Source: a virus. Taken from it: a stretch of 64,000 bases of DNA. Below, piece by piece: positions 3,482 to 27,769 of the stretch. The translations under genes were made by a program, and so were the position numbers. The notes beneath the pieces were generated by a model. That model saw only the letters and a list, made by a program, of their open reading frames with translations, did not search any database and was not told the origin of the DNA. Each line of letters begins with the position of its first letter. Within the stretch, counting starts at the first letter, position 1. The stretch covers positions 15,867 to 79,866 of the IMG/VR virus record IMGVR_UViG_3300036851_000098; one strand, 5' to 3'.

Positions 3482-6400
3482 GTGGATTTCTATCAGATCC
3501 TTGCACGCGAAACAAAGGACAAGAACGATCCGAGGTTGGAGTTGTACCCTGACTTCGTGGTCGGGCGCTCTGAGGATCTGATGGTCCAAGGCGGTAAGTT
3601 CTACGCCATTTGGGATGAAGAGAAGGGCCTATGGTCTCGCGATGAATATGACGTTCAGCGTCTTGTCGATGAGGATCTTCGGCAAACGAGAGAGCGGTTG
3701 GAACAGGATACAGGCCAGAAGTACACCGTGAAGTTCATGCGGTCATTCCACTCGAACATCTGGGCGCAGTTCCGGAAGTTCATGGCACATATTTCGGATA
3801 ACAGCAAGCCCTTGGACCGAAAGTTGGTGTTCGCCAACACGGAAGTGAAGAAGAAGGACTACGCTAGCAAGAAGCTTCCCTATGACATCGGTGAAGGTGA
3901 TATTTCCGCATGGGAAGAACTGACATCAACTCTGTATTCTCCAGACGAACGAGCGAAGATCGAGTGGGCGATCGGGTCAATTGTTGCCGGGGATTCAAAG
4001 AAGATCCAGAAGTTCCTGGTGTTCTACGGACCTCCAGGTACCGGGAAGTCAACGATCTTAAATATCATTCAGCAACTGTTCGAGGGGTATACGACTTCCT
4101 TCGATGGGAAGGCCCTTGGGTCATCTAGCTCTCAGTTCGCTACTGAGGCATTCAAATATAACCCTCTGGTGGCTATTCAGCATGACGGCGATCTTAGTCG
4201 TATCGAGGACAATGCGCGGCTGAACTCTATTGTCGCTCACGAAGAAATGACGATGAACGAGAAGTATAAGCCTTCATATTCTTCAAGAATCGATGCCATG
4301 CTGTTCCTCGGATCGAATCAGCCGGTGAGAATCTCCGATGCCAAGTCGGGTATTATTCGTCGACTGATCGATATTCATCCGACAGGAATCAAGTTCGCGC
4401 CAAAGCGCTACCAAACGCTTATGACTCAGATCGGCTTTGAGCTTGGCGCCATAGCGCATCATTGTCATCAAGTATATTTGACGATGGGCAAGAACTTCTA
4501 TAACGGTTATCGCCCGTTGGAGATGATGTTGCAGACCGATGTCTTCTTCAACTTCATCGAAGCTTACTTCGATGTGTTCAAGAAGCAGAATTACACCACA
4601 CTCAAGCAGGCTTACACGATGTATCGTGAGTACTGCGCTGAGAGCGGAATCGAGCGGCCCATGCCTCAGTACAAGATGCGTGAGGAACTGCGCAACTACT
4701 TTGATGAGTTCAAGGATAGAGGTGAGATCGATGGGGAAGCAGTTCGAAGCCTATATATGGGCTTCACGGCCGAGAAGTTCAAGACTCCTACGGATGATCC
4801 GACGCAGTTTTCGCTCGTCCTTGAAGAGAAGACGTCTCTGCTGGATGAGCTCCTCGCACGATTTCCCGCTCAGCTAGCAAACGCTGATGGGATGCCTACC
4901 AAACGGTGGGCAAATGTGACGACAACTCTTTCAGATATTGATTCGCGAAAAATTCACTACGTGAAAGTTCCTGAAAAACACGTGGTTATCGACTTCGATC
5001 TGAAGGACCAAAATGGCCATAAAGCTCTGGAAAGAAACCTGGAAGCGGCATCTCACTGGCCTGCTACTTATGCAGAGATCAGCAAGTCCGGCTCAGGAAT
5101 CCATCTTCATTACAACTACACCGGAGGCGATGTCTCAGATCTCAGGCGTGATTACGCTGATGGGATCGAAGTTAAGGTTTATACTGGTGACGCCTCTCTC
5201 CGTCGACGACTTACTCGCTGTAATAACGTGGGAGTGGCCGAAATCTCCAGCGGGCTTCCGCTAAAAGACAAGAGGGAGCCGATGCTAAAGACAAAAACTA
5301 TGCAGAGCGAACAAGGGCTCCGAGATTTGATTCAGCGGAATCTTCGTAAGGAGATTCATCCTGGAACCAAGCCTTCGGTGGACTTCATCAAGAAGGTCCT
5401 CGATGATGCTTACGAGTCAGGTATTCAGTATGACGTGACCGATCTTCGTAGTCGTATTGTCGCTTTCGCCAACAACTCCTCCAATCAGGCGCAGGCGTGT
5501 CTGAAGACGGTCAACGAGATGCGATGGAAGTCAGAAGAAGCTGGAGAAACCAAGGAGGAAGCCTTCACTTCCGACCATAATGTTGACGTAAAAGACGATC
5601 GCATTGCGTTCTTCGACGTAGAAGTCTATGAGAACCTCTTCGTGATCTGCTGGAAATTCCAGGGATCTGATGAAGTGGTGAAGATGGTCAACCCAAAGGC
5701 CCATGAGGTCGCGGAGTTGTTCAGTCTCAAGCTGGTTGGTTTCTACAACCGTCGATACGACAATCATATTCTTTACGCAGCAGCTATGGGAGCCAGTAAC
5801 GCGGAGCTCTTCACGTTGTCAAAGAAGTTGGTTATTGATAACAACCGATCAGTGTCGTTTGCTCAGGCGTACAATCTCTCATACGCTGATATTTGGGAGT
5901 TCTCGTCTGAGAAGAAGTCTCTGAAGAAGTTCGAGATTGACCTGGGGATCCTGCACATGGAGCTGGATATTCCTTGGGATCAGCCTGTTGACGAGAAGGA
6001 TTGGCCCAGAGTTGTGGCATACTGTGAAAACGACGTGCGCGCAACCGAAGCCGTGTTTGAGGATCGTAAGGGGGACTTCACAGCGCGGCTAATTCTAGCT
6101 GAGTTGTCTGGTTTGACCCCCAACGATACTACGCAAAACCATACCGCCAAGATCATATTTGGCGACAAGGTGAAGACAGCCAACAAAGACTTCGTCTACA
6201 CCGATCTCTCGAAGGAGTTCCCCGGGTACAAGTTCGAGCTCGGAAAGAGCTATTACAAGGGGGAAGAGCCTGGCGAAGGTGGCTATGTGTATGCCGAGCC
6301 GGGTATGTATTCAAATGTCGCCGTCTTGGATGTTGCATCGATGCATCCGATGTCGATCATCAAGCTGAACGCATTCGGTCCTTATACGCAGAAGTTCGAA

Positions 6401-7339: not shown

Positions 7340-7665
7340 TGAGGGAAGAACTACAAGAAAAGCTAGTGCTAGGTGGGTTTGTGTTGATTGGGCTTGCCCA
7401 ACTGGCACTCCACCCTCGAAAGACATACAACCTAGTCGTCCATAAAGTCGGCTGGCACAACTGATGGGAATCAACAACATAGGATTTCTTATCTCGGACG
7501 GCGACATTCACATTACGCTGCACCCTCCTGAGAGTTCGAGGATTATTCAAGCTCAAGCTGCATACGCACAAACTCTGATCGAAGCTCATCGCCGCGGAGA
7601 ACATCCGTGGGGAAACATGCGACGAGATTGTCCGTTGTGCCAGCTGAATAAATAGAAAGGAAATT

Positions 7666-10220: not shown

Positions 10221-10571
10221 ATGTCGACAACACCGGATATTTTCGGGGATAACCGGCAAGACATCGCACCGCCGGAGCGTTCGCTCAAGCAACGTATGGA
10301 GGCGTTGCATACCGCCAATCGAATCCGTTCCGCACGAGCGAAGTTGAAGCTCGATCTGAAAGCGGGACGTGAGCGCGTTCACGATATTCTTCTGGAACCG
10401 CCGGAGTATATCGAGACGATGAAGGCTTTCGACCTATTGTTGGCCACACCGAAGTACGGACGAGTCAAGACAAATCGACTCTTGGCTCAGTGCCGGATGT
10501 CTCCCTCGAAGACGATCGGTGGAATGAGCGAACGTCAGCGGAACGAACTCGTCTCAATGCTGAGACGATAG
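10221..10571 (+). CDS. mihF: actinobacterial-type integration host factor (mIHF, H2TH fold)
   Basis: QRMEAL..AN.IR..RA.LK.DLK.G; K.FDLLLA.PKYGRVK..RLL...R.SPSKTIGG.SERQR.EL. Confidence 0.88.
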   Translation: MSTTPDIFGDNRQDIAPPERSLKQRMEALHTANRIRSARAKLKLDLKAGRERVHDILLEPPEYIETMKAFDLLLATPKYGRVKTNRLLAQCRMSPSKTIGGMSERQRNELVSMLRR

Positions 10572-10589
10572 CAGCTATATCTGGTCGAC

Positions 10590-11072
10590 AGCCGGTGACG
10601 ATCTAGGGAATAGGTAGCCACGCATTCAAATAAGTCGTGAGGGTAGAACAATACGCATCGCTTTAACGGATAAGTGATCTTAAGTTATTGCGACTCGTGT
10701 CCCTCGTTGTGTAAATCCTATTAGGGCTGTGGAAGCGGGTAGATCACAAAACCCCCTTCGCCCTAGATGACCGATAAAATAGAGGTCCGGGGGTGATAAA
10801 CCACACCGGTATAAGTCGATTTCTGAGGTCGATCGAAAGGGTGAGTCCTAGGCCACCTTACCTCTATAAACGTGATGGGACACGCCCATCGCCGTAAGTC
10901 CTGCAACGCGTGGAGGCAAATGCCTGCGAAGCTCGTGTCAGTCAGGTAAATCGGCAACACGTGAGGTTCGCCGCTCACGTCAATAGAGCACCCGTTGTGG
11001 TGGACTCGAGTTAAACCCGGGGTAGTGACCTGGTACCAGGGGGAGATCGGCGCCCCCTGGTCATTACATATT
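10590..11072 (+). ncRNA. candidate large structured ncRNA 1 (about 480 nt)
   Basis: No credible ORF; nested helices 10601-08/10761-68, 10633-40/10688-95, 10779-86/10860-67, 10872-92, 10959-80, 11035-43/11053-61. Confidence 0.7.
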
Positions 11073-11095
11073 CCCCCCGGAAAGGAGGTGACAGC

Positions 11096-11275
11096 ATGGG
11101 GAGAAAGTGGGCAAAGGTTGGTTTGACTTCCGACGGAACGCTGTACATCTCTGAGGAAGTTCGTCCGGGAGATGCGATGCGTCTCGAGAAGGCGATGACC
11201 AACCCCGAGAAGAAGGAACAGCTCGAGAAGCGTATGGACGATCTGATCGTCGCTCTCGGGGCGAAGTGGGGATAA
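11096..11275 (+). CDS. hypothetical protein (59 aa, not in ORF track)
   Basis: Strong SD AAAGGAGGTG; MGRKWAKVGLTSDG... Confidence 0.75.
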   Translation: MGRKWAKVGLTSDGTLYISEEVRPGDAMRLEKAMTNPEKKEQLEKRMDDLIVALGAKWG

Positions 11276-11282
11276 GTTAGAA

Positions 11283-11429
11283 GTTGGGAGTCCTAGCGTA
11301 CGCCTATTGGCTGTAACCGCGTATTCTGGCGGCAGAACAGTAGCTTTGCGTGTAAAGAGGACGAAGTTGGATTGGGGAGCGCCGGAGAGTGTCGCTCGAG
11401 GCACAGAAGGTCGGGAAACTCCAACATAT
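11283..11429 (+). ncRNA. candidate structured ncRNA 2 (about 150 nt)
   Basis: Closing helix gttgggagt 11283-91/actccaac 11418-25, internal hairpins, followed by CATAT. Confidence 0.5.
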
Positions 11430-11475
11430 GTACAACACAATTCCTGGGTGGATACCTAGGAGAAAGGATGGGCGG

Positions 11476-11859
11476 ATGCTCACCCGAATCAGGATCGAAG
11501 TAGAAGGCGCCGATTCGGCGGCCGCATGCGAGGAAGAGCTTTCCAAGTACGAACACGCCATGCAAGTAACCGAGGCGCAACGCTATGGCATCGGCTACGA
11601 ATACATCGAAACCGAGAAAGGAATAAATCAGTCCTCAGCCACTCATCGCCCATGGGATTTCTCGGTGGAAACCCGAGACTTCTATAACTCGCAACTCGGA
11701 CGTGAGGTGACCGATGAGGTCATCGAATACGATGCGTCTCTGCCTGGCTACCGAGGTCGGCGAGTGGTGCAGTTCAAGCGTATGGACACGCGTGCCTACA
11801 CATACGGCCGAGCGGATCAGCATGAGGTCGGAGAGGCGGCTCGTCAGAGCCTTGCTTAA
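11476..11859 (+). CDS. hypothetical protein
   Basis: AAAGGA SD before ATG 11476 (MLTRIRIEVEG). Confidence 0.7.
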   Translation: MLTRIRIEVEGADSAAACEEELSKYEHAMQVTEAQRYGIGYEYIETEKGINQSSATHRPWDFSVETRDFYNSQLGREVTDEVIEYDASLPGYRGRRVVQFKRMDTRAYTYGRADQHEVGEAARQSLA

Positions 11860-11867
11860 TAAGTAAT

Positions 11868-12453
11868 TCAGTAGATCGGGAGATCGGGCCCCTTTTGATC
11901 GGGGGTGGATAATACCGGCTGACGCGGGATGATGGAGATCATATCCGAAAGGATAAGGTCGTTGGGACGCCCGCATTACTTTGGGTCAACCTGGGCTCAA
12001 GGGTCGACGAGAGTCGATTGGCTCACTCCGTACGTTATGTCGGAGGACAACAGAGGCCAATGGCGGACTACGCCTGTTCGAAAGCGAGGCGTCGGTTTGA
12101 GAGGGCCGAAGACGTTTGAATTCCTCTCTTGTGTGGTCAAGACCCGATAAGAAGCTTGGTCATAAGGACTAAAAGGCAGACTAAGCTCGCCGCACAAAGT
12201 AGGCCTGCTCTACTATTTCAGGAAGTCCGACTCTAGTGAGAATACCTATGGGCCCTCCTAGATAGGCGCTGCGTCAGAGGTCAGACGTAGAGGGATGGAA
12301 TAGAACCCCACCTCTTATCCAACGATGGGAGACGTTAGGAATCGGAGTGAGCCGATCCTGAACGCGAACCTATTGGCTGCGGCCATGGAAGAAGGATTCC
12401 ACTTTGTATAAGAGTTTCTCTCTGAAAGACCGGTCTATTCGCGATCCCATATT
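11868..12453 (+). ncRNA. candidate large structured ncRNA 3 (about 585 nt)
   Basis: End-to-end helix 11870-79/12430-39; 13-bp helix 12018-30/12343-55; GNRA-capped hairpins at 11942-55, 12004-17, 12070-92, 12093-108. Confidence 0.75.
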
Positions 12454-12479
12454 TAGAGACCCCAATTTAAAGGAACATC

Positions 12480-12575
12480 ATGAAGCTTTTCTTCGTAATT
12501 CTTCTAGCAATCCTCGTCGCATTTGGTGGACTGCTGTGGTTCCTTCGTTGGGCCGCGCAGGATATCGACCAGTGA
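12480..12575 (+). CDS. small membrane peptide
   Basis: AAAGGA SD; MKLFFVILLAILVAFGGLLWFLRWAAQDIDQ*. Confidence 0.6.
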   Translation: MKLFFVILLAILVAFGGLLWFLRWAAQDIDQ

Positions 12576-12991
12576 GCACTAACCGTATCCCAGTTTTGCT
12601 CCTTCCTGGGGTAAATCACACCGAAGATCTTGTGGGATTCGGCGAACTCACAGATGACGGAAAGCTGATCATCACCGTAGAGCACGACCGAGGATATTCG
12701 AGAACTCTATCTGAGTCTCGGGTTTACTCTACAAGACGGCTACCGAACGAGAAGTATATGATGAAGTGGTTGCAAAGGTTTCAACGCAGTAAAGAAGAAC
12801 GTGTTCTCAAAGCAATTCGAAACAATGTCCGATTTACTTTAGAGATCAGCAAGGAAGCGCGCATTGGTATTAGTTCCTTATATCCCATTCTAGCCCGTTT
12901 AGAGAATGACGGAGTCATCGACAGCGCTTGGGGTTGGGACGACAATATCAAACGGCGAGTCTATTACATCAAGGAAGAAAATCATGAGTAA
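12572..12991 (+). CDS. PadR-like winged-helix protein
   Basis: C-terminal EI......SSLYPILARLE.DG.I.S.W......RRVYYI; GTGA coupling. Confidence 0.7.
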   Translation: MSTNRIPVLLLPGVNHTEDLVGFGELTDDGKLIITVEHDRGYSRTLSESRVYSTRRLPNEKYMMKWLQRFQRSKEERVLKAIRNNVRFTLEISKEARIGISSLYPILARLENDGVIDSAWGWDDNIKRRVYYIKEENHE

Positions 12992-13238
12992 TTGGCCAAC
13001 GTTGTCAACTACCTGGCCGATCATCTGGGCGGTAAAGCGGAATGACGGGGAGCCAGGTCTCGTTATCTGTCGGGCTAAGGACAGAGAAGGAGCCAAGCGG
13101 ATTGCAGCAAAGCGACTACTTGGTAATCCGGATCAGTTCATTGTCGAACCCCTCTCTCGAGAAGGAGAGGCGGTCGTATTTGATCTCGAAATTGAAGGGA
13201 AGAAGAATGACACGCGTCTACGAGGTTTTCGTGGTTAG
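12984..13238 (+). CDS. hypothetical protein
   Basis: AAGGA SD, coupled ORF. Confidence 0.55.
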   Translation: MSNWPTLSTTWPIIWAVKRNDGEPGLVICRAKDREGAKRIAAKRLLGNPDQFIVEPLSREGEAVVFDLEIEGKKNDTRLRGFRG

Positions 13239-13305
13239 TGGTTCCACTCGGAACCTACAGGCTAAGACTAGCCTGGTCTAACCACCAACTAGAAGGAGGC
13301 CAGTA

Positions 13306-13458
13306 ATGGCCGAGGGCGCGAACTCCATCGTCGACCTCAAGAAGTACTTGTCGACACCGGAGAACCCGGTGACAATGGAAGAGCTCAAGGAGTTTTGGGA
13401 GTCCTGCTCCGACGAGGAGAAGGAGCAGTTCAAGAACACGGAGCTGCCGAAAAGCTAG
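13306..13458 (+). CDS. small hypothetical protein (50 aa)
   Basis: AAGGAGG SD; MAEGANSIVDLKKYL...EFWESCSDEEKEQF. Confidence 0.7.
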   Translation: MAEGANSIVDLKKYLSTPENPVTMEELKEFWESCSDEEKEQFKNTELPKS

Positions 13459-13467
13459 TGTGTTAAT

Positions 13468-14057
13468 TTGGTTGATAATGATGCCTGGGAGAAGAACGGG
13501 ATTCATTATCAACCTTGGGTGAGAGTGAAGCTAAACGTCGATCTGTGTATGCGCCTGCCATCATCACTGGGTATATACTAGGGAGTTTGGTGGAACGTTA
13601 GGACTACATAGGAACGCGCAATATGTCCTTCTCACCCTAAATAATCGGGGAGCCTCACCGGTGCACCGGGAGAAGGAGGCGATGCTGAATAGGGGAGTGG
13701 GCTAATGATCCACGGGTGACTTCAGCAAAAGTAGTGCTTGTCAGACCCCTGGAGGTCGTGAAACACCTCGGGGCAAGTGGCTGATGAGATCTGGCAGCGT
13801 ACCGGTATTTAAGCCATCTCCCGGATGCGTGGTCAGGGGGCAATGGGGTCTCACCGGGGGGTTGGTATGGATTGCGGATTCCTGATACTGACTCCCCGGC
13901 CCGCCTCAATAAGACTTATATTCAAATAATCAATTGGAGGAATCATGAGCGATTGATCGGTAGGGCGTCGGAATCCGACCCCAATTAAATATCAACCAGG
14001 AACGGTAAAGAGAGTGGGGGTGTCTACGGCGAGAGGGTCGAGGCACCCCTGCATATT
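13468..14057 (+). ncRNA. candidate large structured ncRNA 4 (about 590 nt)
   Basis: Helices 13470-81/13503-14, 13517-24/13630-37, 13683-89/13721-27, 13737-44/13781-88, 13854-68/13885-99, 14014-25/14041-52; no SD-led ORF. Confidence 0.72.
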
Positions 14058-14074
14058 TCAGAAAGGAGGCACGT

Positions 14075-14551
14075 ATGATGAGACCACTACTAGCAGTTCT
14101 AGCAACTCTCTGTACGTGTATCGGGCTGGCAGCGCCAGCTTCAGCGGATTGGCGATGGGCCGATCCAACTATCAAACCGGTCAAACCGAAGATATTTGAT
14201 TGCAAGATAAAACTGTGCCAAAAGAAGGCCAAGCGTGTAGCAACCCTGAAATACAGGTTGAAGGTAGCGAAGTACTCGTATAAGAAGGAGCGCGAGTGGC
14301 AGCGCTGGATCAACCAGTATATTCCGGCCTGTACTTGGTACGGCGAGAGTGGCCCAGGACCTGAATTTGCGGCCTGGCGATACGCCGTACCAAATACAAT
14401 GGGATCATCTGCTCGAGGGAAATACCAGATGATGCCCGGAACTTACTCTTCAAGAGCCAGATATTTCGATTGGAGTCCGCTCGATCAAGAGATCGCGGGT
14501 CATCGAGAGTTCTGGGCAAACGGAACCTCCCCCTGGGAGGCTTGCCACTAG
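14075..14551 (+). CDS. secreted lysozyme-like transglycosylase (Rpf-like)
   Basis: Signal peptide (A-S-A); ESG...N..SSA.GKYQ..P.T, SP.DQ...., W..G.SPW..C. Confidence 0.72.
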   Translation: MMRPLLAVLATLCTCIGLAAPASADWRWADPTIKPVKPKIFDCKIKLCQKKAKRVATLKYRLKVAKYSYKKEREWQRWINQYIPACTWYGESGPGPEFAAWRYAVPNTMGSSARGKYQMMPGTYSSRARYFDWSPLDQEIAGHREFWANGTSPWEACH

Positions 14552-17890: not shown

Positions 17891-17895
17891 AAGAT

Positions 17896-17928
17896 TCGCG
17901 AAGTTTTCATGGGGTATAATGAGACCCT
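17896..17928 (+). promoter_or_regulatory. phage promoter-like motif P2
   Basis: TCGCG-N6-TCA-N6-ATAATGAGACCCT. Confidence 0.65.
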
Positions 17929-17944
17929 TATTGAAAGGAAAATC

Positions 17945-18154
17945 ATGTCCCAGCCTCCGCTCAATCTGCTTGCAGAAGTGCTTGTCGCCGAAGACGATTT
18001 GCTCAAAGCTCAGCGAAAGATCGCCCGCGTTCAGAAGACCCCCATTGGGAAACTTCCGATCGTTCGATCCAAGTTGAACAGTCGACAGATCAATCTCGCC
18101 AGCAAGCACATTCGCATCAAAGCCGCGAAGCAGTACCTGAATTCCACCACTTAG
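17945..18154 (+). CDS. basic hypothetical protein (cassette gene)
   Basis: AAAGGA SD before ATG 17945; flanked by P2 and a terminator. Confidence 0.7.
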   Translation: MSQPPLNLLAEVLVAEDDLLKAQRKIARVQKTPIGKLPIVRSKLNSRQINLASKHIRIKAAKQYLNSTT

Positions 18155-18162
18155 TTTCAAAG

Positions 18163-18189
18163 AAGAGAATCTTCACGGATTCTCTTTTT
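18163..18189 (+). terminator. intrinsic terminator
   Basis: aagagaatc/gattctctt stem plus T-run. Confidence 0.75.
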
Positions 18190-18221
18190 CGCGAGATATT
18201 CACGCAGCATAATGAGACCCT
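18189..18221 (+). promoter_or_regulatory. phage promoter-like motif P3
   Basis: TCGCG-N6-TCA-N6-ATAATGAGACCCT. Confidence 0.65.
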
Positions 18222-18246
18222 ATTCATCCTTAACAGGAGACTTGTT

Positions 18247-26103: not shown

Positions 26104-26545
26104 AACAAGCTAAAAACGGCTTGCCAAGCTTTTTGCCAAGATTTTCTTTGGCAAGATTTTAATGCTGAATCACCTGCAAATAAGCGGTTTTGTGTTGCGA
26201 AAACGCTTGCCAAGAAATTTCGTAAAAAGTTTTTTAATATTTTACGACTTCAATATCTGATTATACCTATGGTATTCCTTATATATCTACGCGGGCGCGC
26301 GGAAAAATAGGGGGTTCCATACAAGGAATCAGATACTGGGATGCGTTTTTATAAAAACTTTTTGTCCTCAAAATCTTGGCAGACAAATTCGGCCTAAAAA
26401 GTCGCTGTTTGCGGAGAATCCCAGTATCTATTTGGTCTATTTGCCAAGATTTGCCAAGATTTAGGATAATGTGGACCGCGAAAACCCATGCTGTAGGGGT
26501 ACTCTAATATCTGAAAACGGGTGCCAAATCGACAGATATTGACTG
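26084..26545. repeat. putative replication origin: AT-rich region with TTGCCAAG and CAGATAYTG iterons and a ~175-bp imperfect palindrome
   Basis: TTGCCAAG at 26121, 26133, 26207, 26441, 26451 (+) and TGCCAAG at 26375-81 (-); CAGATAYTG-like copies at 26084, 26251(-), 26330, 26418(-), 26533. Confidence 0.65.
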
Positions 26546-27475: not shown

Positions 27476-27769
27476 TGTTGAATGTGGACGGAGACTTGTT
27501 TTAAATCTTCGGAACGCATGCCATGATGCCAATTCTCCGATTGTCCCAACGCCCATTGCTGAAGCAATCAGAGCGTTGGTAGTGTGGGCAGAGAAGGGAA
27601 AAGAAAATGAAAGAGAATGATAGATCTCAGGATACGAAAGTGTTTCTTGGTGGACGAGCTTTGTGTTCTCCTATGTTTAGATGCTTTCCTCCTCAACCTA
27701 CCATCTGTCTAATTTGTCAAGGAACTACGACTGAGTTTTGTTTGCTGGTAGAGAAATTGGAGAGAGCTG

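Follow-up and report, generated by a model that had tools for sequence, protein, structure and literature searches.

Candidate structured RNA modules interleaved with small genes in an actinophage-like genome

The locus and its non-coding gaps

We analyzed a 64,000-nucleotide (nt) stretch of viral DNA, referred to here as the window, which spans bases 15867–79866 of a 79,866-bp IMG/VR virus record (IMGVR_UViG_3300036851_000098). Our subject is a series of gaps between small genes, directly after a gene for an mIHF-like protein, in which a previous reading of the letters alone (the sequence-only reading) had proposed four large structured RNAs. Judged from comparison with related phage genomes, the cluster of structured phage RNAs is real and had not been described before; it consists of four families of smaller modules (G, M, A, and B) and of unconserved spacer.

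Nearly all long open reading frames (ORFs) of the window lie on the + strand. Products of the phage include a D5-like primase/helicase, a single-stranded DNA (ssDNA)-binding/annealing protein, the mIHF-like protein, a sigma factor, a terminase, a portal, and a tape measure protein. The closest cultured relatives are phages of Arthrobacter, Gordonia, and Streptomyces, with less than 50 per cent amino acid (aa) identity in the ssDNA-binding protein. A DNA search of the whole region against 50,697 cultured-phage records returned zero matches, and the sole public sequencing run containing the window sequence is a soil metagenome. Because of these distant cultured relatives, the lack of DNA matches, and the soil run, we read the source as an uncultured soil actinophage.

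Related metagenomic phage loci are designated by L-numbers. L002 and L003 were retrieved from viral contigs using the mIHF and 158-aa proteins that bound the region; an alignment of the 158-aa protein was then used as a query and gave sixteen metagenome loci, and L021–L024 were retrieved with RNA patterns. After duplicates were dropped, about fifteen distinct related genomes remained. Their common order is an ssDNA-binding gene, a 135-aa gene, mIHF, a variable island of 0.2–3.8 kb, and the 158-aa gene. The proteins flanking the island are just 44–72 per cent identical across these contigs. Genes were called from starts led by a Shine–Dalgarno (SD) sequence, and module homologs were defined by blastn and nhmmer. 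The gaps and modules of the window are as follows.

10572–11095: gap 1, 524 nt
10847–11091, + strand: module G, a multi-helix RNA of ~240 nt (nhmmer E = 8e-55)
11276–11475: gap 2, 200 nt
11350–11432, + strand: module M, copy 1, ~80 nt
11860–12479: gap 3, 620 nt
11866–11985, + strand: module A, ~115 nt
12195–12275, + strand: module B core, ~80 nt
12262–12460, + strand: 3' extension of B, a multi-branch domain common to L008 and L018 only
12576–12757: a further gap, 183 nt
13459–14074: gap 4, 616 nt
13668–13733, + strand: module M, copy 2 (M'), in gap 4 (nhmmer E = 2e-8)

The non-coding gaps noted earlier after mIHF are thus present, with their coordinates redrawn by our own gene calls. TAA, TAG, and TGA all occur in most frames of every gap, so that a recoded stop cannot rescue coding and an alternative genetic code is ruled out. 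Across the 64-kb window there are only two stretches of at least 150 nt without a + strand open frame (of at least fifty codons), and both are in this region, at 10607–10964 and 12151–12361. A 225-aa ORF on the minus strand (10763–11440) was treated as spurious, as it overlaps both an SD-led + strand gene and module G. ARAGORN found zero tRNA or tmRNA genes across the window and none in the islands of the relatives.

Three other stretches of the window (26104–26542, 7340–7647, and 27476–27751) have no + strand open frame of at least seventy codons, and none has an Rfam match at the gathering score.

Four families of covarying modules

The modules were assessed by how consistently their proposed helices pair across homologs. 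Pair positions multiplied by sequences give the number of cells, each scored as paired or not, and the same alignments slid out of register served as the control.

Module G has homologs in five relatives (L008, L018, L021, L023, and L024). Its parts are a hairpin (GAYGGG/CCCRUC); a junction, GCCG..CGGC, bearing the invariant sequences UAAGUCC and GGUAAAUCGGC; a variable hairpin; and a 3' domain in which GGGUAGUG..GGUACC is invariant. Eleven of the thirty-eight consensus pairs, which form six helices, show compensatory changes, and 91.6 per cent of cells are paired (30–48 per cent in slid controls). One 21-mer match to G was found in a Comamonas contig among prokaryote genome representatives; it has no flanking similarity, and we read it as chance.

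Module M consists of a purine-rich 5' tail (GUAAAGAGGACGAAG), a 6-bp closing helix (P1), an internal loop (UUGGGGA / GGGAAAC), and a variable hairpin. There are ten copies in eight genomes, the window included, with two of them in L002. P1 is 100 per cent paired in all ten copies, compared to 13–38 per cent in slid controls. Three of its six pairs are compensatory, as seen in the variants GCUGGA/UCCAGC, GUUGGA/UCCAAC, GCCGGA/UCCGGC, and GCUGAA/UUCAGC, the last of which is the form in M'. The four elements had been described as mutually dissimilar, which does not hold, since gaps 2 and 4 have M in common. A hammerhead reading of M was considered and rejected: the hammerhead-like GAAAC of two copies varies elsewhere (GUGAC, GAGAC, GAUAC).

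Module A was found in seven relatives (L002, L010, L012, L015, L018, L023, and L024). Its long bulged hairpin precedes a GCGGG/CCCGC stem, which in L010 reads GCGGA/UCCGC. In the bulged hairpin, 95 per cent of cells are paired, versus 29–50 per cent in slid controls, with two invariant G·U pairs and three compensatory pairs. The second stem encloses AUGAYGGAG, an optional hairpin, and GGGAC; this GGGAC resembles the internal loop of M (UWGGGGA...GGGNNAC).

Eight genomes, the window included, carry the B core, and each of the four whole phage records with a B core has one copy. An invariant stretch, GUAGGCCUGCUCUAC-NAW-UUCAGGAAGUCCGA, leads into a variable hairpin (P2), after which comes (A)UAGGC. 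Across the eight genomes, GUAGGCCUGCUCUAC and UUCAGGAAGUCCGA hardly vary (~33 of 35 positions), and 38 nt of the core are 100 per cent identical in the window and L002; the flanking proteins of L002 are 53–65 per cent identical. The sequence of P2, in contrast, differs in every genome: five of its six pairs are compensatory, and 98.8 per cent of cells are paired versus 24–42 per cent in slid controls. In the 3' extension, nineteen of sixty consensus pairs are compensatory across three sequences, and the consensus energy is −52.3 kcal/mol on the + strand versus −45.0 on the − strand. The long-range pair CGGACU/AGUCCG, suggested from the sequence alone, does make use of the invariant core of B, but L002 lacks the partner strand. 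Prokaryote genome representatives do not contain the B-core pattern. We also rejected the idea that the minus strand of this core might be a tRNA, as the would-be D stem is unpaired and the flank unconserved.

Compensatory helices across relatives are therefore found in G, M, A, and B alike, which agrees with the structured RNAs of the sequence-only reading. The cleanest structural evidence is that of the M and B helices, which were derived by hand. The size of the units is another matter. Where four large, end-closed RNAs of 480–590 nt had been proposed, the conserved modules measure 80–260 nt, and gap 3 is composed of two separable modules: A is found without B in L010, L012, L015, and L024; L007, L008, L014, and L021 have B but no A; and in L018 genes lie between the two.

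Strand, order, and distribution

The bias towards G·U pairs on the + strand, also noted earlier, was borne out by the alignments. All helices together contain sixty-one G·U cells versus ten A·C cells, and the consensus energy is lower on the + strand in five of five alignments. Because of this G·U bias and the better + strand folding, we take the modules to be + strand RNA structures and not duplex-DNA sites.

The small genes that lie between the modules, with the two anchors of the island, are listed here.

10221–10571, + strand: mIHF-like gene, the upstream anchor of the island (Pfam H2TH_5, E = 6e-7)
11096–11275, + strand: 59-aa ORF (p59) with a strong SD, GGAGGUG
11424–11859, + strand: 436-nt cassette with a leader of 50 nt and then a 127-aa ORF (p127, 11476–11859)
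12480–12575, + strand: 31-aa hydrophobic ORF (p31) with an SD; its leader resembles those behind promoter-like sites at 17895 and 18188
12758–12991, + strand: PadR-like winged helix-turn-helix ORF, 77 aa from the first ATG (Pfam PadR, E = 7.8e-7)
12984–13238, + strand: 84-aa ORF (p84), kept in L008 and L018 (tblastn, 50–60 per cent identity)
13306–13458, + strand: 50-aa acidic ORF (p50)
14075–14551, + strand: 158-aa secreted protein (p158), the downstream anchor, with homologs of 44–69 per cent identity in the sixteen metagenome loci

The order of modules and genes differs from genome to genome.

Window: G, p59, M, p127, A, B, p31, PadR, p84, p50, M', p158
L002: M, A, B, M', p158, with 850 nt free of ORFs
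L007: M, B
L008: G, p84, p50, M, B
L009: M alone
L010: A alone
L012: M, A
L013: no module, flanking genes kept
L014: p50, M, B
L015: p50, A
L018: B, p127, G, p84, p50, A
L021: G and B, within a gap of 965 nt flanked by unrelated genes
L023: p50, M, A, B, ..., G, p158
L024: G, A, with an Rpf-like gene next

Modules often adjoin head to tail within 1–10 nt through A/U-rich linkers. In L002, M, A, B, and M fall within ~500 nt and the distance from A to B is ~80 nt. L021 is a complete 59-kb phage that has no flanking protein in common with the window clade; a tRNA-Met (CAT) gene lies at 5467–5542 of this phage, 3.7 kb upstream of its modules G and B. No further copies of any module were found in the window genome, and additional viral scans with sub-patterns of G and A gave chance partial matches only (L031–L035).

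One might ask whether the modules act as DNA, as cassettes like the PeSLs of T4-type phages, promoters, an origin, attP, or repeats resembling miniature inverted-repeat transposable elements. They do mark junctions of gene shuffling, with the p127 cassette joined to M in the window and to B in L018 at CAUAU-like ends, and there is a likeness between the 3' end of B and the leader that follows the promoter-like sites at 17895 and 18188. Against this, compensatory changes keep the helices, and the predominance of G·U over A·C cells includes invariant G·U pairs. There are one or two copies per genome, diverging along with the genome, and the lack of any module in L013 means that they are not an origin. 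A helix followed by CAUAU was tried both as a fixed end and as a −10 box; the flank turned out to be merely A/U-rich and not fixed, and the spacing to any −35-like element is wrong. Sigma-70-like promoters are not in excess (three sites found versus 2.7 expected), and intrinsic terminators are not enriched either. We consider a DNA-level role very improbable.

The modules could also be cis-regulatory leaders (riboswitch-like, translational, antitermination, or stability elements) of the small ORFs or of the 158-aa gene. The island is always upstream of ORFs on the same strand, a hairpin adjoins the SD of the 158-aa gene, and what follows M in L007 and L014 is able to pair with the 3' strand of P1 (ACUCCA/UGGAGU), which hints at alternative pairing. 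What follows a module varies, however: G precedes p59, p84, p158, or A, and M precedes p127, A, or B. L021 and L024 carry modules without the 158-aa gene, L013 retains the flanking genes without any module, and there is no terminator-like expression platform. This explanation is improbable and, like the DNA-level one, fits poorly. We interpret the modules as RNA units that are autonomous, can be dispensed with, and are exchanged horizontally, and not as leaders of one gene, an origin, or an attachment site.

Interleaved genes and unconserved sequence

Homologs of the mIHF gene with 64–72 per cent identity are found at the equivalent position in L002, L007, L010, L013, L014, and L018. A further conserved non-coding block (X) lies directly after mIHF in several relatives (L002 8308–8410, L010 1491–1593, L012 7–110, L007 71–114) and is absent from the window.

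For p59, there was no Pfam or PHROG match and no tblastn match in the loci of the relatives, and p127 likewise had no match in Pfam or PHROG. The p127 protein is 80 per cent identical at the amino acid level to its counterpart in L018 (2641–3015), and the leaders are 88 per cent identical, while neighboring proteins are 49–70 per cent identical. In the window the cassette is flanked by M and A, in L018 (2591–3016) by B and G, and from these comparisons it may be a 'moron' that is mobile or was recently exchanged. In size it is reminiscent of the ultra-small mobile elements of mycobacteriophages.

Nine homologs of p50, of 46–52 aa, were found in Logan/JGI data. In six genomes the next element 3' of p50 is M or A, at a distance of 8–70 nt in five of these and 214 nt in the window. 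There was no Pfam match above cutoff for p158. A conserved hairpin (Y) adjoins the SD of the 158-aa gene in L002 (8960–9149) and L012 (303–487). ORFs that we judged by eye to be Rpf-type transglycosylase-like adjoin the RNA island or the 158-aa gene in relatives (L003 1–142 and L024 8334–8693, the latter on the − strand).

At 12438–12482, the 3' end of B and the p31 leader together read TTCGCGA..CATATT..GAGACCCC..AAAGGAAC-ATG. This resembles two promoter-like sites, 17895–17945 and 18188–18240, of the form TTCGCGA-N14-TATAAT/CATAAT-GAGACCCT.., though it is ~10 nt short between the upstream box and the −10-like box. Also encoded in the window, among a set of 39 ORFs, are an Mtd_N domain, a NUMOD4 motif, and a 2'-5' RNA ligase / 2H phosphoesterase-like domain (Pfam E = 5.6e-5).

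Homologs could not be detected for about half of the gap sequence, namely 10572–10846, 11986–12194, and most of 13459–14074, and the helices proposed there therefore cannot be judged. Within gap 4, homologs outside the second M copy are absent or merely weak. The features in these parts are the following.

10572–10846, + strand: non-coding 5' part of gap 1, for which blastn and nhmmer found nothing in the relatives
11986–12194, + strand: spacer between A and B, non-coding, unconserved and without a homolog; it contains the GNRA hairpins of the sequence-only reading
13470–13514, + strand: hairpin of 12 bp in gap 4
13715–13866, + strand: stretch in gap 4 with weak similarity to L018 4322–4468
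~14013–14053, + strand: hairpin in gap 4, directly before the SD of the 158-aa gene

What the modules may be

Our preferred reading, to which we give about an even chance, is that at least four families of co-transcribed, + strand, non-coding RNA modules (G, two copies of M, A, and B) form an accessory array among tiny ORFs here. This array would be part of a hyperplastic accessory island of an actinophage, in which tiny ORFs and compact RNA modules are interleaved. A helix closes each module; the purine-rich nucleotides of its loop or junction are highly conserved, a variable hairpin is tolerated, and short A/U-rich linkers join it to the next. We infer co-transcription because the modules have no recognizable promoter or terminator. 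They would be part of a rightward polycistronic transcript, processed at the linkers and released or stabilized as discrete RNAs, much as in phage tRNA and stable-RNA clusters. That L002 has four modules in a row without an ORF suggests that the product is the RNA itself.

The near-invariant, purine-rich loops suggest, from their conservation, a conserved partner or a tertiary or catalytic core. The loops would bind a conserved host or phage factor, or each other, as a decoy, a sponge, or a means of self-assembly. That the modules are trans-acting accessory RNAs whose loops bind a factor or one another has, in our estimate, about one chance in three.

Several points weigh against the array as we describe it. 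The whole-gap z-scores for minimum free energy are −2.2, −1.25, −2.8, and −4.3 for the four gaps, but the mean z in 150-nt windows is −0.89 in the gaps versus −0.82 in flanking coding sequence. Since the folding-energy excess fails to separate gaps from genes, the case for structure rests on covariation. Base-paired structure is thus upheld in the modules, whereas the impression of dense helices does not by itself rise above background, the folding excess being weak and no different from that of the neighboring genes. The alignments are small (3–10 sequences), the pair statistics lean towards structure, and two of the structures were partly fitted with RNAalifold. A search of the phage genome for antisense targets of the invariant loops found none that beat shuffled cores, and no RNA run is among the public runs containing the window sequence. 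Finally, the order M, A, B is kept in eight of the nine genomes with at least two of these modules, which fits a single composite RNA.

The strongest local folding in the 7 kb that we scanned was at 14250–14474, inside the 158-aa gene, with z of about −5 on both strands.

Such a composite would be one large RNA (M-A-B, with or without M' and G) of ~0.5–0.9 kb, with optional domains in the manner of GOLLD or ROOL, which happens to be split by ORFs in the window. Besides the conserved order, M and A abut directly in L002, L012, and L023, as do G and A in L024, and L002 and L021 have ORF-free gaps of 850–965 nt. There is also precedent: RNA-only oligomers are known for GOLLD, ROOL, and OLE (PMC12286853), and manA, a short motif associated with phages, assembles into a 60-mer cage (bioRxiv 10.64898/2026.07.01.735769). 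On the other hand, SD-led ORFs separate G from M and M from A in the window, the elements of L018 run B, p127, G, p84, p50, A, and solitary modules exist (M in L009, A in L010). We found no conserved long-range pairing between modules, and no Rfam family matched, GOLLD and ROOL included. On balance we regard a composite RNA as unlikely.

A different possibility is that the modules are self-cleaving ribozymes, or RNase-recognition elements, that process a polycistronic early transcript. Hammerhead, twister, pistol, hatchet, and RAGATH motifs are known to cluster among small phage ORFs. Here too, several distinct compact motifs occur within a few kb among tiny ORFs, on the gene strand throughout, with near-invariant junction nucleotides, variable hairpins, and A/U-rich linkers after the closing helices. 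The 2H phosphoesterase/LigT-like domain of the phage belongs to a fold class that acts on 2',3'-cyclic phosphate ends, though this match is weak and the domain has other known roles. There is not even a weak match to a known ribozyme family, we can name no cleavage site, and four modules in a row without an ORF, as in L002, would be needless for mRNA processing. We find this explanation quite unlikely.

Returning to the array of accessory modules, it is a tentative and somewhat unlikely extension that at least one of them represents a functional RNA class that is new and has an activity of its own, the modules being exchangeable accessory 'RNA morons'. The best candidate is B, with its invariant loop of ~35 nt flanking a covarying hairpin; the internal-loop motif common to M and A is also possible. 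Such an RNA could be a new ribozyme that cleaves itself, a core for binding a ligand or a protein, or a short RNA that self-assembles.

Phage non-coding RNAs are much less charted than phage proteins, and the few ornate ones that have been studied (GOLLD, ROOL, manA) build RNA-only cages. Here, four unrelated RNA families outside of Rfam are joined and exchanged like gene cassettes among soil actinophages, and two of them have crossed into an unrelated phage. This suggests that accessory 'moron' islands can comprise RNA genes besides ORFs. The modules also provide four short, well-delimited, and synthesizable candidates for assays of cleavage, binding, and assembly.

Comparison with known RNA families

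We compared the region to Rfam 15 using cmscan. At the gathering score there were zero matches in the whole window, and for region 10400–14300 the only matches at E ≤ 10 were two chance matches to unrelated families. Among the relatives, fourteen genomes at the gathering score yielded one tRNA only, and seven genomes at E ≤ 10 yielded nothing relevant. A word search of the literature found no description of the module motifs. The suggestion that this is an undescribed cluster of structured phage RNAs is therefore borne out, given that no Rfam 15 family matches even at E ≤ 10 and that four module families covary.

The known self-cleaving ribozymes (hammerhead, twister, twister-sister, pistol, hatchet, HDV-like, hairpin, and glmS) have no Rfam match at E ≤ 10. 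Known riboswitch classes have none either, there is no terminator-like platform, and the elements downstream of the modules vary. We also considered RNase P RNA, as AGGAAGUCCGA of the B core resembles its conserved region I (CR-I), and rejected it: there is no Rfam match, and the modules compare to E. coli rnpB at chance level. The conserved 3' strand of P4 was not seen in the B alignments.

GOLLD (RF01998) and ROOL (RF03087) are similar to the array in being phage- or prophage-associated, non-coding, and multi-helix, with variable domain content and accessory regions. The ORF-free arrays of L002 and L021, at 0.5–0.9 kb, are in the same size class. In how the array might work, GOLLD and ROOL (PMC12286853), along with short phage motifs such as manA, are its nearest analogues, though it matches none of these families. 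Unlike those families, which have one contiguous RNA of ~600–800 nt with inseparable domains, the modules of 80–260 nt occur singly, assort independently, stand in different combinations, and are separated by ORFs. Covariance models for ROOL, GOLLD, OLE, HEARO, and raiA were unmatched even at E ≤ 10 in region 10400–14300 and in seven relatives. In a further difference, there are no tRNA neighbors in the window clade, the tRNA-Met of L021 being the sole exception.

A second comparison is with phage clusters of tRNAs and stable RNAs, such as the T4 tRNA region with its species 1 and 2 RNAs. In both cases, small structured RNA genes stand in tandem among tiny ORFs and are accessory and variable; co-transcription, which we infer here, would be another likeness. 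The modules differ from these clusters in having no cloverleaf. The sequence-only reading likewise saw no tRNA cloverleaf in the gaps, and across the window ARAGORN found no tRNA or tmRNA and the Rfam tRNA model had no match.

The PeSLs of T4-type phages consist of a promoter and a simple stem-loop repeated many times per genome. Like them, the modules are short conserved intergenic elements flanking shuffled small ORFs in a hyperplastic region. They differ in their elaborate covarying structure and invariant loops, in having one or two copies per genome with no promoter signal or excess, and in a 3' flank that is only A/U-rich.

Another parallel is with the small phage-associated motifs manA, wcaG, and RAGATH, which are found in phage genomes and metagenomes, often with several kinds clustered together. 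These motifs are likewise compact, with a closing helix, invariant loop nucleotides, and variable hairpins. The modules described here differ in having no Rfam 15 match, as four new families joined head to tail, and in the unusually long invariant stretch of the B core, which extends over ~33 of 35 positions in eight genomes.

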